A stretch of 64,000 nucleotides of DNA from a virus (lineage: Duplodnaviria; Heunggongvirae; Uroviricota; Caudoviricetes). Positions 6,777 to 30,659 of the stretch are shown piece by piece. A program made the position numbers and the translations under genes. The stretch is taken from the IMG/VR virus record IMGVR_UViG_3300032335_000499. The stretch is one strand, 5' to 3'. Below the pieces are notes generated by a model, which saw only the letters and a program-made list of their open reading frames with translations, was not told the DNA's origin and searched no databases. The first letter of the stretch is position 1. Every line of letters starts with the position of its first letter.

Positions 6777-6807
6777 TTTCCAATAATAACTATAAAAAGA
6801 GGTGCGG

Positions 6808-7394: not shown

Positions 7395-7397
7395 TCA

Positions 7398-12947: not shown

Positions 12948-12977
12948 TAATGGCGGCGAGTAAAATCGTCGCCATTA
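12948..12977 (+). terminator. Hairpin, probable terminator of the OMP gene
   Basis: TAATGGCGGCGA-GTAAAA-TCGTCGCCATTA; no strong U-run follows. Confidence 0.55.
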
Positions 12978-13000
12978 CCATATTTACAGTAAATACATAT

Positions 13001-14421: not shown

Positions 14422-14679
14422 ATGTCACGTACATTCAATCAAGAAGCTAAAACTAAACTGACTCAACTTATCAACGAAGGTATGAACGTCTTACAAGAAG
14501 TAGAAACCCTCAATGAAGGTCTTAACGATACTGTTAAGGCAATTGCAGAAGAACTTGAAATCAAGCCCTCAATTCTCAAGAAGGCTATCAGAGTTGCCCA
14601 CAAGCAGCGTCTCAATGAAACTAATGAAGAAAACGAAGAACTTAACACAATTTTGGAGACTGTCGGTAAGACTAGCTAA
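14422..14679 (+). CDS. Small helical protein, possibly dsDNA-binding (T4 DsbA-like)
   Basis: Size, charge and position before the polymerase; sigma70-like promoter at 14373-14400. Confidence 0.45.
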   Translation: MSRTFNQEAKTKLTQLINEGMNVLQEVETLNEGLNDTVKAIAEELEIKPSILKKAIRVAHKQRLNETNEENEELNTILETVGKTS

Positions 14680-17396: not shown

Positions 17397-17404
17397 ACAA
17401 ACAC

Positions 17405-17455
17405 TTGACGTTTGCAATAAATTCCGCTATTATACACAATAGACAAACCTAAATA
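17405..17455 (+). promoter_or_regulatory. Sigma70-like (TTGACG-17-TATTAT) plus late (TAAATA 17450) promoters
   Basis: Read directly in the intergenic gap. Confidence 0.55.
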
Positions 17456-17475
17456 TTATAAAGGAAAGATGACAC

Positions 17476-18198
17476 ATGAAAGATTACTTACTTGATTTGA
17501 TTCAACACACTCATGGATTGGGCGTAGTTGAATTAGTAAAGATTGAAGGCACTGCAACTGAAACAAAGGTTGCTGCATATGCAGAAGACAAGAGCGTAGT
17601 TGTATACGGCACGTTTGCTTCGCCTATCGCAGATTTTCAAGGCACATTCGGCATGCCTAACTTGTCCAAGCTTAAGACTATTCTTAGTTTTGATGACTAT
17701 GATGATAAGTCTATCATCAACGTTAGCCGTAACGATGACGGTGTTCCTTCATCGATTCACTTTGAGACTTCGACTGGCGATTTCGTCAATGACTATCGCT
17801 TGATGGCAAAGTCAATCGTTGAAGAAAAGGTCAAAACTGTAAAGTTTGCAGGTACTGCATGGGACGTTGAATTTGAACCTACAGTAGCAGGTATCCTTCG
17901 TCTTAAGAAGCAGGCTTCTGCAAACAGCGAAGAACTTAACTTCAAGACTAAGACTGAAAACGGTGACTTGAAGATTTACTTTGGTGACCCTTCTACGCAC
18001 AGCGGCAACTTTATCTTCCAGCCGGGCGTAAGCGGAAATCTTTCTCGCTCGTGGCAGTGGCCTGTTAAGGTGTTTCTTGCTATCATGGATCTTCCCGGTG
18101 ACAAGACAGTTCGTTTTGCAGACGCAGGAGCTGCTGAAATCACTGTAAACAGTGGTCTTGGAACTTGGCAGTATTTGCTTCCCGCACAGGCTAAGTAA
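17476..18198 (+). CDS. Putative sliding-clamp-like replication accessory protein
   Basis: 240 aa acidic, beta-rich protein right after the polymerase; no diagnostic motif, call rests on size and context. Confidence 0.45.
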   Translation: MKDYLLDLIQHTHGLGVVELVKIEGTATETKVAAYAEDKSVVVYGTFASPIADFQGTFGMPNLSKLKTILSFDDYDDKSIINVSRNDDGVPSSIHFETSTGDFVNDYRLMAKSIVEEKVKTVKFAGTAWDVEFEPTVAGILRLKKQASANSEELNFKTKTENGDLKIYFGDPSTHSGNFIFQPGVSGNLSRSWQWPVKVFLAIMDLPGDKTVRFADAGAAEITVNSGLGTWQYLLPAQAK

Positions 18199-18578
18199 TG
18201 CTACGGACGGTCAGCGGAGCAGGTAGATATGTGATGGTGCAGGGCGGAATGCCTGCACACACATATATCAACTCTAGTTCAGGTTATATGAATGTTGGAG
18301 ATGTTAGATACAACGTTCAAATGCAGCGACTTGAAGTTTATGATGGTCAAATTTGGGTCGAAATCAGCACTGGTCATGCTAGTGTTGGTCTAACTCCCGA
18401 TGCTGAACGTGCATTAGATTGGGCTAATCGGAAGATTGAAGAAGAAGCCGAACTTGATAGGCTAGCAGCATCTAATGCTACCATCGCTGACCTTATTAAA
18501 CAGAAAAAAGAACTTGATGATAAGATAAAGATGGTTCAAATACTTACGAAGGAAGAAGTAAAAGTTGGAACAAATTAA
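18198..18578 (+). CDS. Hypothetical protein with C-terminal coiled coil
   Basis: Translationally coupled ORF. Confidence 0.65.
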   Translation: MLRTVSGAGRYVMVQGGMPAHTYINSSSGYMNVGDVRYNVQMQRLEVYDGQIWVEISTGHASVGLTPDAERALDWANRKIEEEAELDRLAASNATIADLIKQKKELDDKIKMVQILTKEEVKVGTN

Positions 18579-20118
18579 CCTTTCAAACAGTCACAATCCC
18601 GATTGGGCATTGTTTCTGCCCGCAGTCTCGTCATTTTTCATTGCTGGCTTAGGCAAGCAACGTGAAGGTGAAAACTATTTTGACCCGACGAGAATCCCTG
18701 CGGCATTCAATGGAGACGTTGAATGTTTGAACTTCCTTAATAGCAAGCAAGGTCTCTACACTTATAAGTGGGGCTTGTATTCTGCTGGTCACGCTAATCT
18801 TGATATCACTAAGGATGATGCTTGTGAGAGTATCATTCGCAAGAGAGAAGAAGGCACTTTCATGCTAGGTGACTCTGGTGGATTTCAGATTCTCAAGTGT
18901 CAGTGGCCTGCTGATTGGAAGGACCCTAACTGTCCCCGTGCTATGAAGAAGCGTCAACAAGTTCTTACTTGGATGGATGAATACATGGACTATGGCATGT
19001 GTCTTGATATTCCATCGCAGTCTCTTACGACTTATCACATTAAGGACAAGAAGACCGGTACATCAGCACACGGTATCAGCACGATTGAAGAAGCTATTAC
19101 TGCTACTCACATTAACAATGAATATTTTGTTGCTAATCGTGACGGGCGTTGCAAGTTTCTAAACGTTCTGCAGGGTCGTAATCATGGTCAGTCAGATGAC
19201 TGGTATGAGGAGATGAAGAAGTATTGCGATACGAACATCTACGGTGACAAAGCATTTAACGGCTGGGCATTCGGTGGTCAAAACAAGATTGACATTCACT
19301 TGATGCTACGTAGGCTCGTTGGTATCATTCACGATGGCTTCCTAGAAGAAGGCAAGCACGACCTTATTCACTGTCTTGGTACAAGCATTATGGAATATGC
19401 AGTTATTTTTACTGATATTCAGCGGGCAGTTCGCAAGTATCATAATCCTAAGCTACAGATTACGTTTGACTGTGCTAGTCCGTTCTTTGCTGCTGCAAAA
19501 GGCCTCGCTTACAACAACAACACATTTGAGCATAATACCAAATGGTCTTATTCAATGGAAAAGACTGCTGAAAATAAGGGATATGCAACAGATAACCGTA
19601 AGTTTAGCGATGGTGTCCTTGCTGACAAGATTCACAAGGTGTTCGCTGACAGTCCGGTAACTGACATGATGCTGATGAAAGACTTATGCTATCGTGGTCA
19701 AGGTTTCTTAGGTCAGCACGGCAAAGAAACAAAGACTAGCTGGGACACACTTAGCTATACTCTATTGCAGGCACATAACGTATATCAACATATGACTGCG
19801 GTTCAGGAAGCTAATCGTCGGTATGAGAATGGTATCAAGCCTAAGATGGTTATGGATCCTCTAGGTAATCTCAATTTTTCTGATATCGTTGATGAGATTT
19901 TCTCACTCAAGGATCGTGAAAAAAGTCTGGCTATGATTGACAAATACGACAAGTTTTGGCAGCAGTTTAAAGCTGGTCAAGGATTCAGCGGTAAGAAAAC
20001 AGTCAATGCTCACACTATGTTCGACCAGTTATTTGCAATTGAAGACGCCGACCCTGAAATCGATGAAGTCATTGAAGATGCTGATGACTTGATGGAGGAA
20101 ATATTGAGTGTTCCCTAA
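18565..20118 (+). CDS. dpdA: tRNA-guanine-transglycosylase-like protein; putative DNA 7-deazaguanine insertase
   Basis: TGT motif FMLGDSGGFQI; LD, QG, GG and H.LG elements in TGT order; clustered with folE/queD/queE; TTG start. Confidence 0.78.
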   Translation: MEQINLSNSHNPDWALFLPAVSSFFIAGLGKQREGENYFDPTRIPAAFNGDVECLNFLNSKQGLYTYKWGLYSAGHANLDITKDDACESIIRKREEGTFMLGDSGGFQILKCQWPADWKDPNCPRAMKKRQQVLTWMDEYMDYGMCLDIPSQSLTTYHIKDKKTGTSAHGISTIEEAITATHINNEYFVANRDGRCKFLNVLQGRNHGQSDDWYEEMKKYCDTNIYGDKAFNGWAFGGQNKIDIHLMLRRLVGIIHDGFLEEGKHDLIHCLGTSIMEYAVIFTDIQRAVRKYHNPKLQITFDCASPFFAAAKGLAYNNNTFEHNTKWSYSMEKTAENKGYATDNRKFSDGVLADKIHKVFADSPVTDMMLMKDLCYRGQGFLGQHGKETKTSWDTLSYTLLQAHNVYQHMTAVQEANRRYENGIKPKMVMDPLGNLNFSDIVDEIFSLKDREKSLAMIDKYDKFWQQFKAGQGFSGKKTVNAHTMFDQLFAIEDADPEIDEVIEDADDLMEEILSVP

Positions 20119-20650
20119 TAAAGAAAAACCAAATATTGCATATGACCTCTCAAAAAAAATATTCATTAAAGAAAATGCACTAAGCATTGATGTATGTGAA
20201 GATTTGATAACATCACAAGCTTGCAATGTACATAAAGGGGGCGGCGGAGCATTTAGTAATCGTTTTCATGCGTGTTTATTGCCACTTAATCATTCTGTAC
20301 ATTTAAATTTACAGGATACTCTTAACGAGGTAATAGATTTTTTCAAGTTTGAAGTAGATTTTGTAGAACCATATGAAATCAAAAAATATACTAGGGGAGA
20401 CTATTTTAGTCAGCATTACGACAACTACTATGCTTTATCTGAAAATATTGACAGAAAAATTACATTAGTTGCATTTCTTTCTAAAAAAACTTATCGTGGC
20501 GGCAACTTAAACATTGCAGGGAAATCATATGCTCCGTCTCAAGGAACAGTAATTGCTTTTCCTAGCTTTTTCCTACACAGTGTGGAACCAATTCATATCG
20601 GGGACCGCTGGACCTTAATTACATGGTTTTGGGGAGATTATTGGAAGTGA
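20108..20650 (+). CDS. 2OG-Fe(II) oxygenase (prolyl-hydroxylase-like)
   Basis: HYD...HSV...R facial triad; YRGGNL; FPSFFLH. Confidence 0.85.
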   Translation: MFPNKEKPNIAYDLSKKIFIKENALSIDVCEDLITSQACNVHKGGGGAFSNRFHACLLPLNHSVHLNLQDTLNEVIDFFKFEVDFVEPYEIKKYTRGDYFSQHYDNYYALSENIDRKITLVAFLSKKTYRGGNLNIAGKSYAPSQGTVIAFPSFFLHSVEPIHIGDRWTLITWFWGDYWK

Positions 20651-20693
20651 CCAAAACAGTTGATAAATTCTATATAGGTGATATAACTAGACT

Positions 20694-21146
20694 ATGGATA
20701 ACGTAACACAAGCTCTTGCTGAAAAACAGAAACGCATTAGCGAACAAGCTAAGCGCATGATTTGGGTGACCTTTCAAAAAGAAGGCATTCACAAGTATCC
20801 CGGTGCAGACACCGATCCGAAATTGGCAACTGGCGACGAATATGACGTTAGTTTCCTAGGCTACCCGCATCGTCACATCTTTCACTTTAAGGTGGCGATT
20901 CAGGTATTTCACAATGACCGCGACATTGAGTTCATTCAGTTTAAGCGTTGGCTAGAGAATAGCTTCCGTGATGGAGTGATGAAACTTGACCATAAGTCTT
21001 GCGAAATGATCAGCGATGAGCTATATATGTATATAGCAAATCGCTACCCCGACCGTGACATTGAAATCACTGTATCAGAAGACGGTGAGAACGGTGCCAC
21101 TATCTACTACAACACAACTAAACCCTATCAATCACTTGTCATCTAA
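20694..21146 (+). CDS. dpdL: T-fold QueD paralog; putative 7-carboxy-7-deazaguanine decarboxylase (DpdL-like)
   Basis: LGYPHRHIF matches the LxxxHRHxF signature recalled for DpdL; SCEM and VSEDGENGA T-fold elements. Confidence 0.68.
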   Translation: MDNVTQALAEKQKRISEQAKRMIWVTFQKEGIHKYPGADTDPKLATGDEYDVSFLGYPHRHIFHFKVAIQVFHNDRDIEFIQFKRWLENSFRDGVMKLDHKSCEMISDELYMYIANRYPDRDIEITVSEDGENGATIYYNTTKPYQSLVI

Positions 21147-21156
21147 GGAAAATAAA

Positions 21157-21399
21157 ATGGCAAATAATAACACTAAGAATAGTCTCTCCCGCGTTACGCA
21201 AATTTTTATCGATCTAGAGAAGTATCGTGATTTTTGCCGCGATTATGGATATCGGTTTAACGAAGCCGATTTGTATAGTCAGCGAAGCTACGTCTATCGT
21301 CAGTTTCAGAAGCTCACTTCCGGAAAGTATGTAAAGAATCAGTGGGAAGTTGACCTCGTAAAGTTCAAGGAACAAGGGGCATCTAGATTCCGTGCCTAA
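21157..21399 (+). CDS. Hypothetical protein
   Basis: ATG 21157 with AAGGA SD. Confidence 0.65.
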   Translation: MANNNTKNSLSRVTQIFIDLEKYRDFCRDYGYRFNEADLYSQRSYVYRQFQKLTSGKYVKNQWEVDLVKFKEQGASRFRA

Positions 21400-22159
21400 A
21401 ACGGTTGTCATCATTACGGGAGGATTTGATCCACTACATTGTGGGCACATTGAGTACATACATGCAGCCCGTGAGTTAGGTGACATTCTCATTGTAGGTG
21501 TAAATAGTGATGAGTGGCTGGTCCGTAAAAAGGGCCGGTCATTCATGCCATTTGAAGACCGGATTGCAATCATCGGCGCCCTTGAAGGAGTAGATTATGC
21601 TATTCCATTCAATGATCGTGATAACAGTGCAAAAGATGCAATTACGTGGGCCCGTAGAGTTTATCCAGTATGTACCATAGTATTTGCAAACGGTGGTGAT
21701 CGTACTGCTGATAATATTCCAGAAATGGATGTGCAGGATGATAATCTTGAATTCGTATTCGGAGTAGGCGGAAAAGATAAAACTAACAGTTCTAGTTGGA
21801 TTCTTGAAGAATGGAAGGCTGCTAAAACAGAGCGACAATGGGGATATTATCGTGTATTACATGAGAACGGTAAAGAAGTCAAAGTCAAAGAACTTACGGT
21901 TGAGCCTAGGCAATCTTTAAGTATGCAACGACATAATGATCGTTTGGAACTATGGTTTGTTGCAGAAGGCACAGCAACCGTGTATACTATCAATAGTAGT
22001 TCAGATGAAGAACTAGACGGGGTGTATAATAAATTTAGAAGTATTAATATTGCTGCCAATCAATGGCATCGTCTAGCTAACGAAACAGATAAGCCACTAA
22101 AGATTATTGAAATACAATACGGCAACGAATGTATTGAAGAAGATATAGAAAGAAAATAA
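21392..22159 (+). CDS. Cytidylyltransferase-family domain fused to a cupin (mannose-6-phosphate isomerase-like) domain
   Basis: GGFDPLHCGH, GVNSD, FANGGDR; C-terminal RQWGYY, SMQRH, WHRL and IIEIQYG. Confidence 0.85.
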   Translation: MPKTVVIITGGFDPLHCGHIEYIHAARELGDILIVGVNSDEWLVRKKGRSFMPFEDRIAIIGALEGVDYAIPFNDRDNSAKDAITWARRVYPVCTIVFANGGDRTADNIPEMDVQDDNLEFVFGVGGKDKTNSSSWILEEWKAAKTERQWGYYRVLHENGKEVKVKELTVEPRQSLSMQRHNDRLELWFVAEGTATVYTINSSSDEELDGVYNKFRSINIAANQWHRLANETDKPLKIIEIQYGNECIEEDIERK

Positions 22160-22160
22160 T

Positions 22161-23339
22161 ATGCGTAAACTATTTTACATGGGACTTGAAGCGTACAACG
22201 CTCGTTACACACTACAGCTTACTGATTGGAATCGCCGCGTCTTTGAAAAGCGCGGAATTGATGTTGTTTATGTACCAGGCGAAACACTTGATAACAGTCA
22301 GAAGATTGTAACTGGTCAGGTTCTTGATGCACATGGTCGTTCATACTTTGGCATGAGTCAGATGATGAACCTTGTCAAGATGATGCAGAAGGGTGAAGTC
22401 ACTAGCGAGGATGTTATCTACTTTGAAGATATGTTTCAGCCGGGCATTGAATCACTGCCTTATATCATTGACCAGTGTGATGAAGACAATATGCCCCGTA
22501 TCTTCGTTCGTTGTCTCGCACAATCGATTGACCCCGATGACTTTGTTCATGTTTGGGGAATGGATAAGTGGATGGGACTATATGAGAAGATGGTCAATGA
22601 GTTTGCAGATGGCATTCTTGCAACTAACGAAGAAATGGTTGCACACATGAAGATTGCAGGTTGGGATGCGCCAATCTACAATATCTCAGGTCTTGCGTTT
22701 GGTAAGAGCGAAGTTATTGAGCGTGTTGACGGCAAGATTAGACCCTTCAATGATCGCCGTATGCGTGTTGTATTTTCTGCACGTTGGGACCAAGAAAAGC
22801 AACCCGACTTCTACATGGACTTGATTGAAGCGTGGAATGTGCGTTACCCTAGTAAGGATGTTGAGTTCGTTGTTTGCAGTGGTGGTGAATTAAAGAGCAA
22901 CAACGACAGCTATATGGCTCGTACTCGCAAGATGGTTGAGAACGGTAAGTTGACTGTATATGATAATCTTGATAAGAACAAGTATTATGAAATCGTAAAC
23001 GATAGCCGTGTTGTGTTCAACTGTGCGCTGCAAGACTGGGTAAGCAATACTGTAAGCGAAGCAGATGCTTTAGGATGCAATGTACTCTATCCTGCATATC
23101 GTAGCTTCCCTGAGACTTTTGCGAACGACCCAGAGCGTCTTTACATTCCGTGGTCGATTGATGATGCTATCGCTAAGCTTGATGTTTTGCTTAAGAAGGC
23201 ACATCCGAACATGGGCAAGATTAGTGACTACACTGATGGAACTATTGATCGTATCTGTGACATTCTTGAAGGCAAGGGTAACAAGTATCTTCGCATTAGT
23301 AGTGACTATCGTAAGCATACTCGTGAGGCGAAATACTAA
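22161..23339 (+). CDS. GT-B fold glycosyltransferase
   Basis: FSARWDQEKQP, NCALQDWVSNTVSEADALG and YRSFPE donor-binding region. Confidence 0.75.
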   Translation: MRKLFYMGLEAYNARYTLQLTDWNRRVFEKRGIDVVYVPGETLDNSQKIVTGQVLDAHGRSYFGMSQMMNLVKMMQKGEVTSEDVIYFEDMFQPGIESLPYIIDQCDEDNMPRIFVRCLAQSIDPDDFVHVWGMDKWMGLYEKMVNEFADGILATNEEMVAHMKIAGWDAPIYNISGLAFGKSEVIERVDGKIRPFNDRRMRVVFSARWDQEKQPDFYMDLIEAWNVRYPSKDVEFVVCSGGELKSNNDSYMARTRKMVENGKLTVYDNLDKNKYYEIVNDSRVVFNCALQDWVSNTVSEADALGCNVLYPAYRSFPETFANDPERLYIPWSIDDAIAKLDVLLKKAHPNMGKISDYTDGTIDRICDILEGKGNKYLRISSDYRKHTREAKY

Positions 23340-23500
23340 TGAAGAGGTACAAGCTTGAAGTAGTCATTCACGAAGGTTCCGATGAGTTTTGGGAATCTAT
23401 TGCTGATAAAACCGGCTGTGATGAAGTGCTAACTGGTATCCGCGAAGAATTAGATACTTGGGATGCAGAAATTACATTAGTAGAATATACTGATAAATAA
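23339..23500 (+). CDS. Small acidic hypothetical protein (53 aa), not in the ORF track
   Basis: TAATG coupling; MKRYKLEVVIHEGSDEFWESIADKTGCDEVLTGIREELDTWDAEITLVEYTDK. Confidence 0.6.
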   Translation: MKRYKLEVVIHEGSDEFWESIADKTGCDEVLTGIREELDTWDAEITLVEYTDK

Positions 23501-23559
23501 AAATGTAACACAAAGGTTACAAACAACATTAACATATCCGTGTAAGGAAGGAAACAAAT

Positions 23560-24240
23560 ATGTCTTATAACAAAACTAAAACCGACCCCGAATTGGGTCA
23601 AAAGATTCACGAACACCTAATAAAGATGGGTGTTGAAACTCCCACAAAAGATAGCGCACTAGACCGTAAAGAAAAGATTGAGGTTATTGAAGCACACTTC
23701 AATGGCATTATGAGAGCATTAGGTCTTGACCTAGAAGATGACAGTCTTATGGATACGCCGAAGCGTGTCGCTAAGATGTACGTCAACGAAATCTTTTGGG
23801 GTCTTGACTATGATGCATTCCCCAAGTGTACAACTGTTGCGAACAAGATGAACTACGATGAAATGGTCGTAGAGCGTAATGTCAATGTTCAATCTAACTG
23901 CGAACACCACTTCGTAATCATTGATGGGCTTGCTACTGTTGCATATGTCCCTAACGAAAAGGTCCTCGGCCTGTCAAAGATTAATCGCATTGTTGAATAC
24001 TTTGCAAAACGCCCACAGATTCAAGAGCGTTTGACTGAACAAGTATTCCATGCACTTTGCTACATCCTTGAAACTGAAAATGTTGCGGTCATGATTGACG
24101 CACAGCATTATTGTGTTAAGAGCCGCGGCGTTGAGGATACTGGTTCTTCAACTGTGACTACTAAGCTTGGTGGTGGATTCAAGACTGATGCTGCTGCTCG
24201 TGCAGAGTTTCTTAGCATCGCCCGCATGGGTAAGTGCTAA
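23560..24240 (+). CDS. folE: GTP cyclohydrolase I
   Basis: TPKRVAK, SNCEHHF, GLSKINR, RPQIQERLT and HYCVKSRG. Confidence 0.97.
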   Translation: MSYNKTKTDPELGQKIHEHLIKMGVETPTKDSALDRKEKIEVIEAHFNGIMRALGLDLEDDSLMDTPKRVAKMYVNEIFWGLDYDAFPKCTTVANKMNYDEMVVERNVNVQSNCEHHFVIIDGLATVAYVPNEKVLGLSKINRIVEYFAKRPQIQERLTEQVFHALCYILETENVAVMIDAQHYCVKSRGVEDTGSSTVTTKLGGGFKTDAAARAEFLSIARMGKC

Positions 24241-24710
24241 TGATCTTTAACAAGATTAAAGACCTAAAGGAAGAAGGCAAGACAATAGGTATTACCTTTA
24301 GTACCTTTGACATGCTTCACGCAGGTCACATTGCAATGTTAGCAGAAGCTAAGAATCACTGTGACTATTTGATTGCAGGACTACAGACTGACCCAACTAT
24401 TGATAGACCGGATACGAAGAACAAACCTATTCAGTCAATCGTAGAGAGACAGATTCAACTTAGTGCTTGTCGCTTTGTTGATGAGGTAGTTATTTACCAA
24501 ACTGAACAAGATTTGGTAGATTTACTCTTGACATTGCCCCTAGATTGTCGTATACTGGGTATAGAATATGAAGATGTAGACTTTACCGGACGTAAAGAAT
24601 GTTATGCCCGTAATATCGATATCGTATTCAATGGTAGAGACCACAGCTTTAGTAGCAGCAATCTACGCAAGCGGGTCGCAGAAGCAGAAAGAAACAAAGA
24701 TGGAACCTAA
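24240..24710 (+). CDS. Cytidylyltransferase (TagD-like)
   Basis: TFDMLHAGH and RDHSFSSS motifs. Confidence 0.88.
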   Translation: MIFNKIKDLKEEGKTIGITFSTFDMLHAGHIAMLAEAKNHCDYLIAGLQTDPTIDRPDTKNKPIQSIVERQIQLSACRFVDEVVIYQTEQDLVDLLLTLPLDCRILGIEYEDVDFTGRKECYARNIDIVFNGRDHSFSSSNLRKRVAEAERNKDGT

Positions 24711-24927
24711 AGACCCTAACAAGAAGTATGAAGATATTTTGAAGAACATCAACTTTTCATTTATAGTGCCTGCTACGGTACCTGTTGGAACATACAAGTT
24801 TAATCAGCCTGTTGAAACATTAAATGAAACTATTGCACGTTTGGATGATGTTGATGAAACAGTCGATGCAATGACTTCTTATCCTCAGGCAAAGAAAATG
24901 CTTGACAAAGTGTATGGAAAGTTGTAA
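24700..24927 (+). CDS. Hypothetical protein
   Basis: ATG 24700 overlaps the upstream stop. Confidence 0.55.
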   Translation: MEPKDPNKKYEDILKNINFSFIVPATVPVGTYKFNQPVETLNETIARLDDVDETVDAMTSYPQAKKMLDKVYGKL

Positions 24928-25132
24928 GTTAGACTTACACGGTGTTAGGCATCAAGATGTTGATGCTCTTGTGGAGAACTTTGTTCTGATGAATCAGGAC
25001 AGTTTTCCACTCACCGTCATTTGTGGTAACAGTGTAAAAATGGTAAAGCTTACCGAAACAGTACTAAATAGGATTGGGTGTGAATACTCAATGTATCGGT
25101 TCGGTGTATTAACGATTAGGAAGTTTAAGTAA
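24914..25132 (+). CDS. Small Smr-like domain protein
   Basis: KLDLHG...VICGNS pattern. Confidence 0.5.
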   Translation: MESCKLDLHGVRHQDVDALVENFVLMNQDSFPLTVICGNSVKMVKLTETVLNRIGCEYSMYRFGVLTIRKFK

Positions 25133-25587
25133 TGTTATATTGTGCGTATGGAATGAATACTAATATTGAACAGATGGCTTCACGCTGTCCTGGTTCCGTT
25201 AGTATTGGTCGTGTTGACATTCCAGATCATCGTCTAGTGTTTCGTGGCGTTGCTGACATTGAAGTAAGCCCCGGCGATACGCTACAGACTGTTATGTGGG
25301 ACATTACTGATGAATGTGAAGTGGCTCTTGATATGCTTGAGGGCTTCCCAACGTTCTATGGCAAAAAGTATATTGATGTTCAAATCAATAACAAGACCTA
25401 TAAAGCAATGATTTATCAAATGATTGGGGATCGACTTGACTATTATAGCCCAAGCAATTACTATCAGTATTTGCTTGAAGAAGGATATAAGGACCACGGT
25501 CTTGAATTAAATCAAATTTATAATGCAGAAGGCTATAGTGAAGTTGAGGATACTCTTGACTACATCAATCGTCGTTATGCTTATTAA
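25132..25587 (+). CDS. Gamma-glutamylcyclotransferase (AIG2-like) protein
   Basis: LYCAYGMN, MASRCP and LDMLEGFP..Y. Confidence 0.85.
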   Translation: MLYCAYGMNTNIEQMASRCPGSVSIGRVDIPDHRLVFRGVADIEVSPGDTLQTVMWDITDECEVALDMLEGFPTFYGKKYIDVQINNKTYKAMIYQMIGDRLDYYSPSNYYQYLLEEGYKDHGLELNQIYNAEGYSEVEDTLDYINRRYAY

Positions 25588-25588
25588 C

Positions 25589-25652
25589 AGTGGTCTTTGG
25601 CGCTCATCCCACTATAAACACTCTGCGTGTCATCTAAAGGAGAACAAAGATG
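25589..25652 (+). ncRNA. Candidate preQ1-I-like riboswitch/pseudoknot overlapping the queD ribosome-binding site
   Basis: P1 AGTGG/CCACT; loop starts with U and ends with C; tail ATAAA; loop TCTTTGG complementary to CTAAAGG, which includes the SD. Confidence 0.45.
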
Positions 25653-26156
25653 ACAAAATATGAACCAGTAAGTTACAAGTATACAAGTACTAAAGAATAT
25701 CACGACTCGTTTCCGTGTGCGTATCGTCAATGGCGAGCCGATAGTCACTGCAATAACATTCATGGCTATTCGTTTACTATCAAGGTATACTTTGGTGCTG
25801 ATACTCTAGATGCACGAAACTGGTGTGCGGACTACGGTGGTCTAAAGGACTTGAAGGCAATTCTTGAAGACCAGTTCGACCACACTTTGCTTGTTGCAGA
25901 AGACGATCCTGATATGGATGTGTTCAAGCTGTTACAAGAACGTAACATGGCAAAGCTGACTATCATTCCAGCAACTGGCTGTGAAGCACTTGCTGACATG
26001 ATTTACAAGTTTGTTAACGGTGTCTATATCCCTGATCACTGGGGTAAGGGCGAAGCTGAACGACTTTGGTGCTATCGTGTTGAAGTTCGTGAAACACAGA
26101 GCAACATGGCTTTCCGTGAAGGTCATCGTGAATGGAATGAGGATTTGCTAGGATGA
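25650..26156 (+). CDS. queD: 6-carboxy-5,6,7,8-tetrahydropterin synthase
   Basis: SHCNNIHGYS, DYGGLK, FDH..L and EALA. Confidence 0.9.
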   Translation: MTKYEPVSYKYTSTKEYHDSFPCAYRQWRADSHCNNIHGYSFTIKVYFGADTLDARNWCADYGGLKDLKAILEDQFDHTLLVAEDDPDMDVFKLLQERNMAKLTIIPATGCEALADMIYKFVNGVYIPDHWGKGEAERLWCYRVEVRETQSNMAFREGHREWNEDLLG

Positions 26157-26326
26157 GCAACTGGTTTGTACTAGATAAAAACGACAACATTTTTGCTGAT
26201 GTTGAAGAAGAAGATGAAGCCTGTGAATTAGCAATTACCTATGTTACTGATCCTTGGACTGAGGATGCAGCACCATTCAAGGTAATGAGTTACGATGAAT
26301 ATATGGAAGCCTATCACAGGGTTTAA
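26153..26326 (+). CDS. Small acidic hypothetical protein (57 aa), not in the ORF track
   Basis: ATGA overlap with the queD stop; open frame MSNWFVLDKND...YHRV. Confidence 0.55.
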   Translation: MSNWFVLDKNDNIFADVEEEDEACELAITYVTDPWTEDAAPFKVMSYDEYMEAYHRV

Positions 26327-26344
26327 TACATAGGATACGAGATA

Positions 26345-26839
26345 ATGACTAAGAAAGTATATTACACCGACAAACAGATTGATGGCATGGTCCATGATAT
26401 CATTCGTCAAATGAACAATGATAACTGGATGCCTGATTATGTCGTAGGTCTTACTAGGGGCGGACTTAACCCTGCCCTAAAGATTAGTCATTATCTCAAC
26501 ATTCCGATGGAGACGCTTAAGGTCAGTCTTCGTGATGGTGGTGAATCAGAATCTAACTGCTGGATGGCAGAAGATGCATATGAGGGTAAGCATATTCTAA
26601 TCGTTGATGATATCAATGATACTGGTGCTACTCTCAATTGGATTAAAGAAGATTGGCAAGGTAGTGCGTTCAAACATGATCTTAAATGGGAAACTGTTTG
26701 GAACGACACTGTGCGGTTTGCTGTAATAGTTGATAACGATGCAAGCCCAGTTGAAGTTAACTATATCGGAAAAAGTATCAACAAAGCAGAAGATCCGCAA
26801 TGGATTGTCTTCCCTTGGGAAGAATGGTGGAAAGGATGA
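26345..26839 (+). CDS. Purine phosphoribosyltransferase (Gpt-like, type I PRT)
   Basis: VGLTRGGLNPA and the PRPP loop LIVDDINDTGAT; WIVFPWE. Confidence 0.88.
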   Translation: MTKKVYYTDKQIDGMVHDIIRQMNNDNWMPDYVVGLTRGGLNPALKISHYLNIPMETLKVSLRDGGESESNCWMAEDAYEGKHILIVDDINDTGATLNWIKEDWQGSAFKHDLKWETVWNDTVRFAVIVDNDASPVEVNYIGKSINKAEDPQWIVFPWEEWWKG

Positions 26840-26845
26840 TTGACA

Positions 26846-27028
26846 ATGGACTTAATTAGTGTTATAGCTGTAGTATTATTCTGTGCATTAGCATCTGCAT
26901 TCTTGTATGGAATGTGGGTGATAGAAGATGACAGATATCAATTTAGAAAGAAGCACGGCATTGATCCTAAATATCACGGCTGGGTTGTGAAAGACAAAGA
27001 AAAAAATGACGAAAATCAAGATAAGTGA
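26846..27028 (+). CDS. Small membrane protein
   Basis: Hydrophobic N-terminal helix. Confidence 0.5.
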   Translation: MDLISVIAVVLFCALASAFLYGMWVIEDDRYQFRKKHGIDPKYHGWVVKDKEKNDENQDK

Positions 27029-27860
27029 ATTGTTCTACAGTATTCAGGGAGAAGGTCGGTACATGGGTGTGCCGTCCGTTTTCCTTAGAACATATGGATG
27101 CAATTTCAAATGCGCCGGATTCGGCATGCCAAAAGGTGAACTATCAAGTGAACGAGAAAAAGTCAATCCAGAAGACTATAAAGAATATGGTACCCTCCCG
27201 CTCGTCTCTACAGGCTGCGATTCCTACGCATCCTGGGATCCTCGCTTCAAGCATCTTTCTCCCAGCAGGGATGTTGATACTATTGTCAGCGACATTATGG
27301 AACTACTACCGTTTAAAGAATGGAAAGACGAACACCTCGTCATCACAGGAGGAGAACCACTCCTCGGATGGCAACGAGCCTACCCAGAACTCCTAAGTCA
27401 TCCTAAGATGAAGGGTCTCAAAGAGATTACTTTTGAGACTAATGGTACGCAACCACTAAGTGATGAATTGTTTGCTTATCTTGACGATTGGTTGTGGGAA
27501 GGTTTGGACAACGGGATTTCACGAGAAGTCACTTTTAGTGTCAGTGCAAAGTTGAGTTGTTCTAGTGAGAAGGCAGAAGATGCTATCAAGCCCGAGATTG
27601 TTGCACGATATCAAGATGCTGGTCATGCCTATCTTAAGTTTGTTATCGCAACAGAAGATGATGCTAAGGAAGCACTAGCGGCAGTTGAGCGTTATCGTGA
27701 TGAAGGTTTCTATGGTACTGTTTACTTCATGCCAGTAGGAGGCGTTGAAAGTGTTTATCATCTTAATAATCGCACTGTCGCTGATCTTGCTATGAAGAAT
27801 GGCGTTAGATATAGTGACCGTTTGCAAGTTCCATTGTTTAAGAATGCCTGGGCAACATGA
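27006..27860 (+). CDS. queE: 7-carboxy-7-deazaguanine synthase (radical SAM)
   Basis: ELFYSIQGEG, FLRTYGCNFKC...CDS, ITGGEP, ETNG and RLQVPLF. Confidence 0.93.
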   Translation: MTKIKISELFYSIQGEGRYMGVPSVFLRTYGCNFKCAGFGMPKGELSSEREKVNPEDYKEYGTLPLVSTGCDSYASWDPRFKHLSPSRDVDTIVSDIMELLPFKEWKDEHLVITGGEPLLGWQRAYPELLSHPKMKGLKEITFETNGTQPLSDELFAYLDDWLWEGLDNGISREVTFSVSAKLSCSSEKAEDAIKPEIVARYQDAGHAYLKFVIATEDDAKEALAAVERYRDEGFYGTVYFMPVGGVESVYHLNNRTVADLAMKNGVRYSDRLQVPLFKNAWAT

Positions 27861-29209
27861 AGACTTACAGTAAACGCATTGCATTTATGATTAGTGACCA
27901 GCACTTTATCCCACATGGGGGCATTGGTCAGTTTGCTAAAGGCTTTACTGAAATGTGTCAGCGTATCGGCTGGAAAGTTGATATTGTTCTTGACAAGTCT
28001 CCAACTAATGATTTTAGTGAACTAATCAAGGATTTAGGTGCAAATATCATCTATCCAAATGAGCCTTTGCGCTACACTGACCATACTGCAACCTTTGCGT
28101 TTACTGATACTATCAACTTTGAAAAGATCATTAACTTCCGCAAAGCTATTCTCAAGGGCTTTGAAACTAATCTCTATGACATGATTGTATGCAACACTCA
28201 GGAAGCAATGACTGCTGCATATGCTATGACAGTCAATAAGTATATTCCTGTTGTATTCTATACGCACTTGCATAGTATGATTTTTAGAGAAGCACAGAAC
28301 TTCACTGATGTATTTCTAGATAGCTATCATAACTTCTATAACAAGCACATGGAGTTTTCTGATATCATCATCGGTACGCAGAGTCAAAAGAACATTGATG
28401 AATTGACTAAGTTTGGTGCTACTAACTGTCAACTGTTGCGTATGCCTATGAGTGAGCGCGGCTTGCTAGAACCCTATAACGGTACCAAAAAGGGTGTGTT
28501 GTTTATCGGTCGCTGGGAAGAGGGCAAGAACCCAGAAGCATATATTCGTGCAATGAAGGAGTGTCAACTTCCGGCTCGTGTAATGACAAACAAGAATGGT
28601 GCTAAGAAATTTGAAAAAGCGTTTCAAGAAGCAGGCATTACAGACTATGAGATTAAGGCTGGCATTACTGGTAAAGAAAAAGTAGACTTCGTTTGTGGTT
28701 CTAGCGTGTTCTTTATGCCAAGTTTGCGTGAAAACTATCCATTCGCATTTCTAGAATGCTTAGGGCATATGCCATGCGTTGTTTTAGACAAGCAAGATTG
28801 GTCTGACAATTTTGATAGTAAGTTTTACAATAAGGTAAATATCAATGACGCCGGTGAAACTATTAAGTCATTATATGGTACTAATCAGCATTCAGAAGCG
28901 TTAGAATACGTCAAGCAACTTGACGATGAAGTAGCAGTAGGTTGGATTCAGTTTTTGGATGATTTTGTTGCTAAGCGCAGCAATAACAATTCAGCTAAAA
29001 TCAACACATATGATACCGTAAAGTACAGCGATTATATCAAAGAGCTTAATAGGAATCATTTGGCACGAGAAGATTTTGAGAGCGTGTTGTCTAATAGATA
29101 TAAGTTTCTGCATGTAGTTTATACAGACACAGATACTTGGCTCTCAAAGGATCCTGCGTTTTCTCCTAAGGAAGAACTAGCTGGTTCAAATTTATTTGAG
29201 GGATTTTAA
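27857..29209 (+). CDS. GT-B fold glycosyltransferase (GT4-like)
   Basis: HGGIG, LFIGRWEEGKNP and PSLRENYPFAFLE. Confidence 0.82.
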   Translation: MKTYSKRIAFMISDQHFIPHGGIGQFAKGFTEMCQRIGWKVDIVLDKSPTNDFSELIKDLGANIIYPNEPLRYTDHTATFAFTDTINFEKIINFRKAILKGFETNLYDMIVCNTQEAMTAAYAMTVNKYIPVVFYTHLHSMIFREAQNFTDVFLDSYHNFYNKHMEFSDIIIGTQSQKNIDELTKFGATNCQLLRMPMSERGLLEPYNGTKKGVLFIGRWEEGKNPEAYIRAMKECQLPARVMTNKNGAKKFEKAFQEAGITDYEIKAGITGKEKVDFVCGSSVFFMPSLRENYPFAFLECLGHMPCVVLDKQDWSDNFDSKFYNKVNINDAGETIKSLYGTNQHSEALEYVKQLDDEVAVGWIQFLDDFVAKRSNNNSAKINTYDTVKYSDYIKELNRNHLAREDFESVLSNRYKFLHVVYTDTDTWLSKDPAFSPKEELAGSNLFEGF

Positions 29210-29210
29210 T

Positions 29211-30047
29211 ATGAAGAAGATTTTAATCACAGGTTGTTCGGGCTACATTGGCTCACACCTTACCAAACTGTTAGAGAATGATTATGAGGTTCACGGACTT
29301 GATATTTGTGAACCGCAGCATCCCGTCAAAGAGTTCAATCAGATTGATATTAATAGACTGTTTACTACAGAGGATGAATATGATGCAGTGATTCACCTAG
29401 CCGCACTAGTGAATGTAGGTGAGAGTGAGCGTATTCCCATTCAATACTACATCACTAACCTCAATGGTACTATGAATGTTATCAACAAGATTAAGACCAA
29501 AAACTTTATCTTTGCTAGTACTGGTGCTGCTGAATTGTGCGAGAGTGCATATGGTATCAGTAAGAGAGCAGCAGAGGATGTTGTGCGTGAATATTGTACT
29601 GTTCACAACCCAACACCATACACGATTTTTAGGTTCTACAATGTAATCGGTACCGACGGCTATAAGCCCACTAATCCGGACGGCTTGATGTACAATCTCA
29701 TCAAGGCGATTGACACCGATGAGTTCACTATCTACGGTAAAGACTATGAACAGAGTGAAGATGGCACTGCTATCCGCGACTACGTTCATGTAAACGAAAT
29801 CTGCCACGCACTGAAACTAGCAATTGAGAAACCAGCTAATGGCGTTGAATCACTAGGACATGGTGTTGGTTACACTGTCAGAGAGATTGTGAACAAGTTT
29901 CAAGAAGTTAACAATACGTTCTTTGATATCAAATACGGTCCTCGTAGACCAGGTGATGCTGCTGTTAGCGTGTTAGAAGATGTTTCTAGCTATATGGAAC
30001 ATTTATATAGTATGGATGAACTTTTAAAGGTTGACAACATTGTTTAA
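29211..30047 (+). CDS. NAD-dependent epimerase/dehydratase (GalE-like)
   Basis: ITGCSGYIG, HLAA, YGISK, RFYNV and RDYVHV. Confidence 0.92.
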   Translation: MKKILITGCSGYIGSHLTKLLENDYEVHGLDICEPQHPVKEFNQIDINRLFTTEDEYDAVIHLAALVNVGESERIPIQYYITNLNGTMNVINKIKTKNFIFASTGAAELCESAYGISKRAAEDVVREYCTVHNPTPYTIFRFYNVIGTDGYKPTNPDGLMYNLIKAIDTDEFTIYGKDYEQSEDGTAIRDYVHVNEICHALKLAIEKPANGVESLGHGVGYTVREIVNKFQEVNNTFFDIKYGPRRPGDAAVSVLEDVSSYMEHLYSMDELLKVDNIV

Positions 30048-30059
30048 TTGTGATAGAGT
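30031..30059 (+). promoter_or_regulatory. Sigma70-like promoter
   Basis: TTGACA-17-TAGAGT. Confidence 0.7.
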
Positions 30060-30065
30060 GGTAAG

Positions 30066-30656
30066 ATGAATATATTTTATGTAAATTCCGACCCAGAGGT
30101 CGCCGCCCGTAATATGGTTGATCGGCATGTTGTCAAGATGATTCTTGAGACAGCACAGCTCCTGTCAACTGCCCATCGTGTCATTGACGGTGAAGAGTAT
30201 GTAGGACAGTCACAGTCTGGTCGCAAAGCAAAACGTTGGAGGTTATCAGGTAATGTTGACGCTATTATGTATGCTGCTACTCATATTAATCATCCTTCAG
30301 CAGTTTGGGTTCGTGAAAACTCTGCTAACTACAATTGGTTGTATGATCATCTTTTGGCTCTTGGTCGTGAGTATACCCATCGTTATGGTCGTACTCACCT
30401 TACTATTGATAAGCTAAAAGATATTCTCAAGGATGCCCCTGAGAATATCGAGCAAAGCAATGTAATGACTAAGATGCCATCGTGCATGGACAAGCAATAC
30501 ATTGTAAGCTTAGACCCAATTATCAACTATCGCAACTATTACAATTACGGCAAGACTGACTTGCTTCGCTGGTCTAATCGACCGCCGCCGCAATGGATTG
30601 ACGGCACAGTTATCATGACCGATGGTAAGAAGCAGATATATACTATACAGAGGTAA
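30066..30656 (+). CDS. Pyrimidine-dimer DNA glycosylase/endonuclease V family protein
   Basis: MNIFY..DP..AA...DRHVVKMILETAQLLSTAH and THINHPSAVW. Confidence 0.75.
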   Translation: MNIFYVNSDPEVAARNMVDRHVVKMILETAQLLSTAHRVIDGEEYVGQSQSGRKAKRWRLSGNVDAIMYAATHINHPSAVWVRENSANYNWLYDHLLALGREYTHRYGRTHLTIDKLKDILKDAPENIEQSNVMTKMPSCMDKQYIVSLDPIINYRNYYNYGKTDLLRWSNRPPPQWIDGTVIMTDGKKQIYTIQR

Positions 30657-30659
30657 AAT

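Follow-up and report, generated by a model that had tools for sequence, protein, structure and literature searches.

A predicted glycosyltransferase gene travels with DpdL in a QueC-less 7-deazaguanine cluster of a tailed phage

In many unrelated phages, a glycosyltransferase gene that we call X travels with the gene for DpdL, a putative 7-carboxy-7-deazaguanine decarboxylase, an association that is new here. Both genes lie in a cluster within a 64-kb stretch of DNA (the window), which is part of a phage genome probably >300 kb in size. We see about an even chance that the module as a whole, X included, exchanges guanine in the phage's own DNA for a QueC-independent 7-deazaguanine-type base. 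It is very probable that a deazaguanine base is placed into DNA by a 517-aa enzyme of the cluster. X is probably a functional part of the deazaguanine system, judged on gene neighbourhood only, because every X-bearing lineage has it next to DpdL or no more than two genes away. The 7-deazaguanine genes of the window are tightly packed, all on the + strand and some with overlapping ends, downstream of genes for a DNA polymerase (PolB) and a clamp:

14679..17396, + strand, family B DNA polymerase of the replication module preceding the cluster (Pfam DNA_pol_B E 1.2e-39, DNA_pol_B_exo1 E 4.6e-23)
17476..18198, + strand, sliding-clamp-like protein (35% identical to PA5oct EST35_0314, 31% to 2.275.O gp465, 28.5% to the Phosso sliding clamp; Pfam scan without match)
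18565..20118, + strand, putative DpdA-like base-exchange enzyme of TGT fold, 517 aa, PA5oct-type clade (contains DSGGFQ)
20108..20650, + strand, 2OG-Fe(II) oxygenase, variable accessory (Pfam 2OG-FeII_Oxy_3 E 1.7e-14)
20694..21146, + strand, DpdL, putative 7-carboxy-7-deazaguanine decarboxylase (contains LGYPHRHIF)
21392..22159, + strand, nucleotidyltransferase-cupin fusion of sugar-nucleotide metabolism (Pfam CTP_transf_like E 3e-14; C-terminal MannoseP_isomer E 3.6e-21)
22161..23339, + strand, X, predicted GT4-type (retaining) glycosyltransferase of GT-B fold (AF2 model, pLDDT 84.7, with Foldseek)
23560..24240, + strand, FolE, GTP cyclohydrolase I (Pfam GTP_cyclohydroI E 1.5e-61; 63% identical to the ACP17 protein)
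24234..24710, + strand, small nucleotidyltransferase, like RfaE domain II or glycerol-3-P cytidylyltransferase (Pfam CTP_transf_like E 2.3e-10)
25132..25587, + strand, gamma-glutamyl cyclotransferase-like protein, variable (Pfam GGACT E 9e-6; PHROG 2520 E 2.9e-26)
25650..26156, + strand, QueD, 6-carboxytetrahydropterin synthase (Pfam PTPS E 1.7e-18; PHROG QueD-like E 2.4e-37)
26345..26839, + strand, 6-oxopurine phosphoribosyltransferase, PRT (Pfam Pribosyltran E 7.5e-17; best PDB matches archaeal purine PRTs and XGPRT)
27006..27860, + strand, QueE, radical SAM 7-carboxy-7-deazaguanine synthase (PHROG QueE-like E 4.9e-54; Pfam Radical_SAM E 2.8e-8)
27857..29209, + strand, Y, second GT-B/GT4-like glycosyltransferase (weak Pfam Glycos_transf_1 match, E 2e-4; atlas look-alikes in GT1/GT4 clusters)
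29196..30047, + strand, NAD-dependent sugar epimerase/dehydratase, variable (Pfam Epimerase E 8e-33; in a few relatives and contig L101)

A sequence-only reading of this DNA had named a TGT-like gene, the protein with LGYPHRHIF, folE, queD and queE, and all of them were recovered on the + strand where it placed them or close by. The region also encodes a 2OG oxygenase, two nucleotidyltransferases, two GT-B glycosyltransferases, a GGACT-like protein, a purine phosphoribosyltransferase and an epimerase, none of which that reading used. No tRNA genes and no hydroxymethyl-pyrimidine pathway were seen in the window.

In queuosine chemistry, FolE, QueD and QueE together convert GTP to 7-carboxy-7-deazaguanine (CDG). 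The QueD of the window has CxxxHGY in place of the usual CxxxHGH, a variant also found in QueD of phages ZZ01, ACP17 and phiST, while QueE is matched below cut-off by several NCBIfam QueE models and is 46% identical to that of ZZ01. The DpdL motif fits the published signature LxxxHRHxF, and the role of DpdL as a decarboxylase is a published proposal; no dDG was obtained from E. coli expressing dpdL together with dpdA from phiST or ACP17 (PMC10516641). DpdL of the window is 71% identical to that of Phosso, 61% to PA5oct, 58% to ACP17 and 33% to phiST, and H59, H61, F63, S102-C103-E104 and E129-D130 are invariant across eight phage DpdLs. PA5oct DpdL reads HFH in place of HRH. Pfam scans of about 50 of the larger ORFs detected no QueC, QueF or ArcS in the 64-kb window, and tblastn of the window with QueC, QueF and Gat of Vibrio phage 2.275.O gave no match, which upholds the earlier statement that these genes are missing from the window. 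QueC was likewise not found above cut-off in two near-complete relatives (G001, 333 kb, 92% complete; G002, 352 kb, 100% complete), nor in the complete genomes of PA5oct, ACP17, phiST and ZZ01, with 2.275.O as a control scoring E 1.7e-51; a queC gene may still lie in the rest of this particular phage's genome. The proposed logic of FolE, QueD, QueE, DpdL and a transglycosylase holds, with DpdL recognised by its motif and by homology to the ACP17 and phiST proteins.

The same logic, with FolE, QueD, QueE, DpdL and DpdA3, is the dDG pathway of Cellulophaga phage phiST (Cui et al. 2023, PMC10516641). The two systems are alike in their biosynthetic steps, the lack of QueC, the DpdL signature and the QueD variant, and phiST has a purine PRT related to that of the window. 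They differ in that DpdA3 of phiST has 259 aa and shows no profile-level match to the 517-aa protein, in that phiST has no X homolog, and in the MazG-like and small ATPase genes of the phiST cluster, neither of which was recognised in the window.

No HMM library confirms the TGT-like label of the 517-aa protein, and Pfam TGT does not match it. Structure prediction and profile-profile alignment support a TGT fold, and we propose that it is a DpdA-like enzyme, a putative exchanger of guanine in phage DNA. It shares its fold and catalytic residues with tRNA-guanine transglycosylases, but not the zinc-binding CxCxxC...H site of those enzymes, which none of the 79 family members has. Identity to the bacterial and archaeal enzymes (TGT, ArcTGT) is ~13%, and the gene of the window's enzyme lies among DNA replication genes and not beside queuosine tRNA genes. 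The enzyme falls in a large and very divergent clade with proteins of PA5oct (EST35_0316), 2.275.O and Phosso. Members co-occur with deazaguanine genes in distant phages, namely PA5oct (QueE, DpdL), 2.275.O (QueF, QueC, Gat, FolE and a YhhQ-like gene) and the distant contig L101, whose DpdA-like protein is 51% identical to the window's enzyme. The gene order PolB, clamp, TGT-fold protein recurs in PA5oct, 2.275.O and the metagenomic contigs L095 and L101; the large gene upstream of the clamp in 2.275.O is unannotated.

The sequence-only reading had invoked the DpdA3 subfamily and its link to complete replacement of G. DpdA3 identity was rejected: the family profile gives no match in either phiST or Campylobacter phage CP220, and structure and profile ranking place the enzyme nearest its own clade, followed by DpdA2, DpdA1 and DpdA3. 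Complete replacement therefore cannot be deduced from the enzyme type. DpdA2 (Vibrio phage nt-1; ACP17, BUCT-ZZ01, Xanthomonas X1) is the closest named subfamily, by a distant match (hhalign to ACP17 96%, E 1.6e-9, 176 columns; family HMM E 4.9e-9; Foldseek to nt-1 DpdA2 E 4.7e-9) in which the catalytic core alone aligns and pairwise BLAST is not significant. Unlike DpdA2, the clade carries a long helical C-terminal extension, to which the window's own protein adds an acidic tail; DpdA2 in ACP17, ZZ01 and X1 has the same DpdL and X partners. In nt-1 less than 0.2% of G is modified, with preQ0-type bases (PMC6884629), and modification levels are not transferable to the window's phage.

Of the cultured relatives with data, the nearest is Pseudomonas jumbo phage PA5oct (Wroclawvirus), whose genes EST35_0316 to 0322 include a transglycosylase of the same clade (33% identity over 80% of the window query; family profile E 4e-151). 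PolB, clamp and transglycosylase are arranged as in the window and are followed by X, DpdL, a PRT-like gene and QueE; in GenBank QueE is annotated and the other genes of EST35_0316 to 0322 are hypothetical. In the part of PA5oct that was examined, sugar-nucleotide genes did not turn up. Several, but not all, restriction enzymes with G-containing sites fail to cut PA5oct virion DNA, a result that the authors interpret as modification in a GA and/or GG motif (PMC12191111). The high occupancy envisaged in the sequence-only reading is unsupported, as occupancy is not readable from sequence and the resistance of PA5oct is partial. In the literature searched, neither the PA5oct transglycosylase nor its clade has a name, and the chemistry of the modified G is not given.

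X is kept in all 38 related contigs of at least 15 kb, and Pfam Glycos_transf_1 matches 31 of 59 family members. Profile and BLAST searches place X next to DpdL in PA5oct, ACP17, BUCT-ZZ01, Phosso, L102 and L103, one gene apart in X1 and two genes apart in L101 (L101, L102 and L103 being metagenomic phage contigs chosen on length alone); BUDD and BCSR5 carry an X homolog too. Phages that carry the pairing include a Kyanoviridae cyanophage, Busanvirus, Arenbergviridae, jumbo phages of Xanthomonas and Sinorhizobium, and marine contigs, and the pairing occurs with two different DpdA types. No X homolog was found in phiST, RHph_I1_18, CP220 or 2.275.O; both of the deazaguanine phages tested that have no DpdL are without X. 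As phiST and RHph_I1_18 have DpdL, X is not needed for its retention. The best Foldseek matches of the X model are MshA, BshA, PimA and glycogen synthase (prob 1.00, E ~1e-11); X shares with the retaining GT4 enzymes MshA, BshA and PimA the GT-B fold of two Rossmann domains, and the closest structures act on small-molecule or lipid acceptors, not DNA. The protein is acidic (pI 5.1), and no known DNA glycosyltransferase matched it specifically among the best 50 PDB and best 30 Swiss-Prot rows. T4 DNA glucosyltransferases offer a functional analogy in that they, like X, sit in a phage DNA-modification gene cluster.

The remaining sugar-nucleotide genes are lineage-specific. Y is 43% identical to a ZZ01 gene sitting between FolE and DpdA, with further homologs in X1 and BUDD and partial ones in Erwinia jumbo phages. 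The nucleotidyltransferase-cupin fusion occurs in about half of the related contigs. The small nucleotidyltransferase (NCBIfam rfaE_dom_II E 1e-20, under the model's cut-off) is present in most of them and in L101 (58%), and was not found in the X-bearing phages PA5oct, ACP17, ZZ01, Phosso and X1. L101 has this gene again, together with the epimerase, the PRT, X, DpdL and the DpdA-like gene. The 2OG oxygenase is found in 4 of 38 related contigs of at least 15 kb, at 42-56% identity. PRT homologs in phages occur almost only beside deazaguanine genes: they were found in 8 of 50,697 phage records (ZZ01, the phiST group and Brevundimonas phages MaInes and StAshley), all eight of which carry deazaguanine genes, and also in PA5oct (EST35_0321) and L101.

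In the pathway that we propose, FolE, QueD and QueE would make CDG from GTP, and DpdL would decarboxylate CDG to 7-deazaguanine, the role already suggested for it in phiST. Once the DNA has been replicated, the 517-aa enzyme would put this base in the place of guanine in double-stranded phage DNA, using a conserved Asp nucleophile (D302) and an Asp pair (D103/D148). We propose that the PRT recycles the guanine freed by the exchange, by way of GMP to GTP, the starting material of the pathway itself; alternatively it might ribosylate a deazapurine. X may add a sugar to the deazaguanine, whether to the free base or to the base within DNA, or may be needed for base synthesis. Provision and extension of that sugar could fall, in the window's lineage, to the nucleotidyltransferases, the epimerase and Y. 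Plain 7-deazaguanine has no evident hydroxyl for a glycosyltransferase.

The second role for the PRT leads to a different route, which we consider improbable, in which the PRT and PRPP turn CDG or DG into a nucleotide that is reduced and phosphorylated to a dNTP and incorporated by the phage polymerase, with the TGT-fold protein secondary (for example in repair or proofreading at G sites) or acting on another substrate. In the tubercidin and toyocamycin pathways a PRT does convert a deazapurine base and PRPP into a nucleotide. The near confinement of phage PRTs to deazaguanine clusters and the proximity of polymerase and clamp genes would fit, as would the L101 PRT adjoining a HIT-family nucleotide hydrolase and that of MaInes lying between FolE and a dNMP kinase with ribonucleotide reductase, in a genome where Pfam TGT is undetected. 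However, a transglycosylase is present in all lineages examined save MaInes, where DpdA may be too divergent for detection; ACP17 lacks this PRT yet carries the pathway; the window yielded no recognisable dGTP-specific hydrolase or dedicated kinase; and the sequence neighbours of the PRT are guanine/xanthine enzymes, which fits guanine salvage. Post-replicative insertion is argued for all known cases by Cui et al. (PMC10516641). Less credible still is a TGT-fold protein that modifies host or phage tRNA with a queuosine-precursor-like base for control of translation and not for DNA protection. It would account for the fold and catalytic residues, but the zinc site is missing, the window has no tRNA gene, the gene is embedded in a DNA replication module in several lineages, PA5oct, with an enzyme of that clade, has DNA whose resistance to restriction points to modified G (PMC12191111), and phage TGT-like proteins studied to date all act on DNA (PMC6884629, PMC10516641).

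It is also possible, though unlikely, that the phage carries bare dDG (and/or dCDG if DpdL is weak) and that the glycosyltransferases, nucleotidyltransferases and epimerase are unrelated to DNA; glycosylation of virion proteins or remodelling of the host envelope would be possible functions. The QueC-less FolE-QueD-QueE-DpdL-transglycosylase set is shared with phiST, and measurement showed phiST DNA to be fully dDG (PMC10516641). The acceptor preferences of the structures closest to X, the want of an evident sugar acceptor on 7-deazaguanine, the variation of sugar-nucleotide genes between relatives and the occurrence of Y in Erwinia jumbo phages, which are absent among the DpdL matches, all point the same way. 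Against it, X keeps to a place beside DpdL or at most two genes from it in phages that differ widely and have two DpdA types, a linkage that is hard to explain if X is unrelated, and the only group with measured dDG, that of phiST, is without X.

For the virion base, the CDG pathway, DpdL and the lack of QueC speak for the unsubstituted 7-deazaguanine of the sequence-only reading, while the company that X keeps with DpdL and the lack of X in phiST speak against it, and plain dDG as the only product is doubtful. Plain dDG is a plausible prediction for this phage, though not the safest one: with X in the DpdL system, the base in its virion DNA may therefore be a sugar-bearing dDG and not bare dDG.

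The window encodes a predicted phage 7-deazaguanine modification system in which the transglycosylase comes from a divergent clade that is apparently unnamed, and DpdL, the proposed decarboxylase of 7-carboxy-7-deazaguanine (CDG), is partnered by a conserved glycosyltransferase. Its sequence is phage-like, with a G+C content of ~40% and nearly all genes on the plus strand, and it closely matches none of 50,697 phage records. A TGT-like gene, a protein with the motif LGYPHRHIF, folE, queD and queE had been named after the polymerase and clamp genes by the sequence-only reading, and each is present on the plus strand. These gene-by-gene observations stand, and the interpretation placed on them stands in part: the predicted stop of the pathway at CDG or 7-deazaguanine is retained and the appeal to DpdA3 is not. 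The locus is laid out as follows.

14679-17396, plus strand, family B DNA polymerase
17476-18198, plus strand, clamp-like gene
18198-18578, plus strand, 126-aa protein of unknown function
18565-20118, plus strand, 517-aa TGT-fold protein
20108-20650, plus strand, 2OG-Fe(II) oxygenase
20694-21146, plus strand, DpdL, 150 aa, with LGYPHRHIF
21392-22159, plus strand, nucleotidyltransferase-cupin fusion
22161-23339, plus strand, glycosyltransferase-like protein X, 392 aa
23560-24240, plus strand, FolE (Pfam E 1.5e-61)
24234-24710, plus strand, small nucleotidyltransferase
25132-25587, plus strand, GGACT-like protein
25650-26156, plus strand, QueD (Pfam PTPS E 1.7e-18; PHROG QueD-like E 2.4e-37)
26345-26839, plus strand, purine phosphoribosyltransferase (PRT)
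27006-27860, plus strand, QueE (PHROG QueE-like E 4.9e-54; Pfam Radical_SAM above cut-off)
27857-29209, plus strand, second glycosyltransferase-like protein, Y
29196-30047, plus strand, NAD-dependent epimerase

NCBIfam equivalog cut-offs were not reached by QueD or QueE of the window. Scans for promoters and terminators gave no excess over shuffled expectation, and a permissive Rfam search of positions 17000-31000 (E up to 1) found no preQ1 riboswitch 5′ of queD (25589-25652). The sole Rfam match, a cobalamin riboswitch inside the PRT gene (E 0.54), was dismissed as chance.

The 517-aa protein has no match in Pfam, PHROGs or NCBIfam, and neither phmmer nor a 79-sequence profile found anything meaningful among PDB sequences. 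It has the TIM-barrel fold of TGT enzymes and belongs to a family of >6,500 proteins (E 0.001, among 8,000 candidates scored) in 822 clusters at 50% identity, a clade that is very common in metagenomes. S73, D103, S104, G106, D148, P150, H269 and D302 are invariant in an alignment of 79 members, homologs 24-40% identical to the query. The family profile matches E. coli TGT by hhalign (91%, E 9e-7), and this alignment pairs the catalytic and substrate Asp residues of the two: D103 corresponds to D89 within a common DSGGFQ loop, D148 to D143, and D302 to the nucleophile, D264, within a common FDC motif. The gathering score of PF01702 is not reached by the 517-aa protein, which gave no match, and marginal matches were seen in 4 of the 79 members (best E 0.0087). 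The structural zinc site of the tRNA enzymes, CxCxxC...H, is likewise missing from the alignment: CxCxxC occurs in none of the 79 sequences and no conserved Cys column follows D302. Thus, the protein keeps the fold and the catalytic machinery of TGT but lacks the zinc site and escapes the Pfam model. Residues ~490-517 form a strongly acidic, low-confidence tail following a helical extension. Given this tail and the fixed place of the gene after PolB and the clamp in several lineages, the transglycosylase might be recruited to the replisome.

Comparison with the DpdA subfamilies does not place the protein in DpdA3. The family HMM, which finds PA5oct at E 4e-151, gave no match, even at E as high as 1, in the DpdA3 carriers phiST and CP220 (a Campylobacter phage). 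BLASTP against the DpdA proteins of ACP17 and phiST was not significant, and hhalign against phiST DpdA3 (CGPG_00065) reached 72% over 82 columns only. Foldseek against predicted viral structures ranked the protein's own clade first, followed by DpdA2 of Vibrio phage nt-1 (E 4.7e-9) and DpdA1-type proteins, with phiST DpdA3 below these at 27th (E 6.8e-3). Taken together, the BLASTP, hhalign, HMM and Foldseek results rule out DpdA3. The transglycosylase of ACP17, which groups with that of Vibrio phage nt-1 and is thus a DpdA2 (PMC6884629), is matched by the family HMM at E 4.9e-9 (profile positions 99-292 of 478) and by hhalign at 96% (E 1.6e-9). DpdA2 phages were not reached by tblastn with the 517-aa protein, and the reverse search did not return the window's clade. 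From sequence profiles and predicted structures we conclude that the 517-aa protein probably represents a DpdA-like clade of its own, for which DpdA2 is the nearest, though distant, named subfamily. The clade is apparently unnamed, as no paper among those searched gives it a DpdA label, and it may already be listed in the supplement of Cui et al. 2023.

Among phages, tblastn with the 517-aa protein found PA5oct-like Pseudomonas jumbo phages (33%), Sinorhizobium phage Phosso and Vibrio phage 2.275.O, in all of which the gene is annotated as hypothetical. In PA5oct the order is PolB, a clamp, the gene of this clade, X, DpdL, a PRT-like gene and QueE; in 2.275.O a series of genes for QueF, a YhhQ-like transporter, QueC, a Gat-like protein and FolE begins two genes downstream of it. 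Members of the clade occur with deazaguanine biosynthesis genes in the window, PA5oct, 2.275.O and the metagenomic contig L101; a divergent member, on contig L093, has no deazaguanine genes within its contig. The PA5oct study named QueE and a PTPS, and did not name the transglycosylase or the chemical identity of the modification (PMC12191111). The resistance of PA5oct DNA to restriction described there (PMC12191111) gives indirect support to the predicted exchange of G in DNA by this clade. Recognition of this clade, unseen by standard HMM libraries, gives PA5oct-type jumbo phages a structure-backed candidate for their missing transglycosylase.

The motif LGYPHRHIF at 20694-21146 carries the DpdL signature, LxxxHRHxF, which stands in place of the CxxxHGH of QueD (PMC10516641). 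The window protein aligns with the DpdLs of ACP17, phiST, freshwater cyanophage BUCT-ZZ01, Phosso, Xanthomonas X1 and RHph_I1_18 (by tblastn, ACP17 58%, E 1e-38; phiST 33%, E 2e-7), and His, Cys and Glu positions are invariant across the DpdLs of eight phages. As to a QueD/PTPS-like T-fold, there is no Pfam match, hhalign of the eight DpdLs against the window QueD is weak (10%, E 0.003), and PTPS appears in 10% of the members of look-alike clusters in the Atlas; the published HHpred T-fold value of 99.9% is for phiST DpdL. The QueD proteins of the DpdL-bearing window, BUCT-ZZ01, ACP17 and phiST all have CxxxHGY, as against the canonical CxxxHGH.

QueC, QueF and ArcS were not detectable within the 64-kb window. 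Two near-complete relatives (333 kb and 352 kb), whose transglycosylases are 84% and 80% identical to that of the window, also have no QueC above the cut-off, and QueC is absent from PA5oct, ACP17, phiST and BUCT-ZZ01; the positive control, 2.275.O, scored E 1.7e-51. FolE, QueD, QueE and a DpdA without QueC thus accompany DpdL in the window, its near-complete relatives, PA5oct, ACP17, phiST and BUCT-ZZ01. A PP-loop ATPase in three relatives of the window (within G001:C1:67535-70720; also in G002 and G003) was considered as QueC and rejected: the 327-aa protein is generic, matches only in its N-terminal nucleotide-binding part and scores 20 bits against the QueC model, for which the cut-off is 22. 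The window holds no homolog of it. Because QueC is lacking from the window, the two near-complete relatives and these four DpdL phages, and FolE, QueD, QueE and DpdL are present, the pathway is expected to stop at CDG or 7-deazaguanine, in agreement with the dDG (2′-deoxy-7-deazaguanosine) and/or dCDG product first proposed. Decarboxylation of CDG to 7-deazaguanine by DpdL is a published proposal, which we infer to apply here.

The remaining conserved component is X. By predicted fold it is a GT-B, GT4-type retaining glycosyltransferase: the model (pLDDT 84.7) has two Rossmann domains, and Foldseek returned MshA, BshA, PimA and others with a probability of 1.00 and a TM of up to 0.69. PF00534 (Glycos_transf_1) matches in 31/59 members of the X family (best E 5.5e-9), and X of the window itself has only a weak Glyco_trans_1_2 match (E 0.0014). 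Its homologs in ACP17 (gp124) and PA5oct (EST35_0317) sit between DpdA and DpdL, and a gene adjoining DpdL in BUCT-ZZ01 is 66% identical to it; profile matches also adjoin DpdL in Phosso and lie one gene away from it in Xanthomonas X1. Each of 38 related IMG/VR contigs (those ≥15 kb) carries the clamp-like gene, the transglycosylase, DpdL, X and FolE. QueD and QueE are found wherever the contig extends to them, and the remaining genes vary. The same neighborhood recurs around three distant metagenomic homologs of X, on contigs picked only for length: DpdL is adjacent in two of the three and two genes off in the third, and FolE, QueE and a 420-510-aa transglycosylase are all nearby. Of the phages that lack X, phiST and RHph_I1_18 have DpdL, and CP220 and 2.275.O do not. 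On this neighborhood evidence X probably belongs to the deazaguanine system, and DpdL usually travels with a GT4 glycosyltransferase whichever type of DpdA is present. Since X is acidic and similar to enzymes with small-molecule acceptors, it may act on the free base or an intermediate and not on DNA.

Beyond X, seven parts (FolE, QueD, QueE, DpdL, X, Y and PRT) are common to the window and BUCT-ZZ01, which differs in its DpdA2-type transglycosylase. Contig L101, with a transglycosylase 51% identical to that of the window, also repeats the small nucleotidyltransferase, the epimerase and PRT; elsewhere among phages with X, the first of these genes is not conserved. A macro-domain (Appr-1-p processing) protein after DpdL in RHph_I1_18 and a PAPS-reductase-family protein after FolE in X1 are possible further lineage-specific additions to DpdL clusters. 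Directly 3′ of the window cluster, at 30066-30656, lies a DenV-like pyrimidine-dimer DNA glycosylase (Pfam Pyr_excise E 1.5e-6), with a 44% identical gene two genes after X in BUCT-ZZ01; among the compared loci it is common only to these two, and the "glycosylase" just before DpdL in Phosso is unrelated. An N6/N4 DNA methyltransferase domain just downstream of the cluster (31085-32134, Pfam E 2.6e-6) raises the possibility of a further modification, of the methyl type, in the DNA of this phage.

Several other genes of the window lie outside the cluster. A second 2OG-Fe(II) oxygenase is found far from it (55727-56356, Pfam 2OG-FeII_Oxy_5 E 2.4e-20), and ClpX (42514-43713, AAA_2 E 6e-32, with the ClpX zinc finger) and ClpP (46849-47451, E 4e-80) are a few kb apart. 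The region 6741-12359 encodes CsgG (7835-8629, Pfam E 2.6e-47), a curlin-repeat protein (8626-9321) and a CHASE2 adenylate/guanylate cyclase (10272-12359), all phage-encoded. A 983-aa protein with an Amidoligase_2 domain (2396-5347) and a class-I glutamine amidotransferase/peptidase C26-like protein (12950-13552) are also present, a gene pair typical of large phages.

The conversion of GTP to CDG by FolE, QueD and QueE is established chemistry, and in the window these genes, identified by homology, would supply CDG for DpdL to turn into 7-deazaguanine. The TGT-fold enzyme would then exchange G in the phage DNA for 7-deazaguanine through a covalent Asp302 intermediate, a step to which the conserved residues and the gene context point. 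PRT, which is of the 6-oxopurine type, could convert the released guanine to GMP and so return it to GTP. A rival reading is that PRT makes a deazapurine nucleotide for incorporation during replication. PRT homologs were found in only eight of all 50,697 phage records, every one a deazaguanine phage, and in PA5oct in addition; the enzyme is thus an almost exclusive companion of phage deazaguanine clusters, which bears on whether insertion is purely post-replicative. In Brevundimonas phage vB_BpoS-MaInes (ON529866.1 40884-59336), PRT lies between FolE and a dNMP kinase with ribonucleotide reductase, and QueE is nearby. That genome has QueC, no DpdL and no Pfam-detectable TGT, and a 266-aa gene in it has no BLAST similarity to phiST DpdA3; the phage is a candidate for the nucleotide-level route or for another hidden DpdA. 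High occupancy is hinted at by the presence of PRT in the fully substituted phiST group as well and by the place of the cluster beside replisome genes. The digestion pattern of PA5oct DNA and the low modification levels of nt-1 argue for caution.

Expression of dpdL with dpdA in E. coli gave no product, and "other unknown enzymes" were invoked (PMC10516641). X is a concrete candidate for such an enzyme, and its pairing with DpdL suggests that a new class of modified purine may exist. We can suggest, tentatively and as the less probable outcome, that phages pairing DpdL with X (this lineage, PA5oct, ACP17, BUCT-ZZ01, X1 and Phosso) carry a sugar-bearing 7-deazaguanine in their DNA, with X adding the first sugar to deazaguanine or a CDG-derived handle, and Y and the nucleotide-sugar genes extending or supplying it here. 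A bare 7-deazaguanine offers no obvious hydroxyl as a sugar acceptor. If true, this route would explain why DpdL and DpdA alone yielded nothing in E. coli. Carrying 7-deazaguanine in DNA protects phages against restriction enzymes and CRISPR nucleases, and interest in such modifications extends to phage therapy and enzymatic tools; a sugar-bearing form would be, to judge by the papers searched, the first glycosylated purine hypermodification of DNA.
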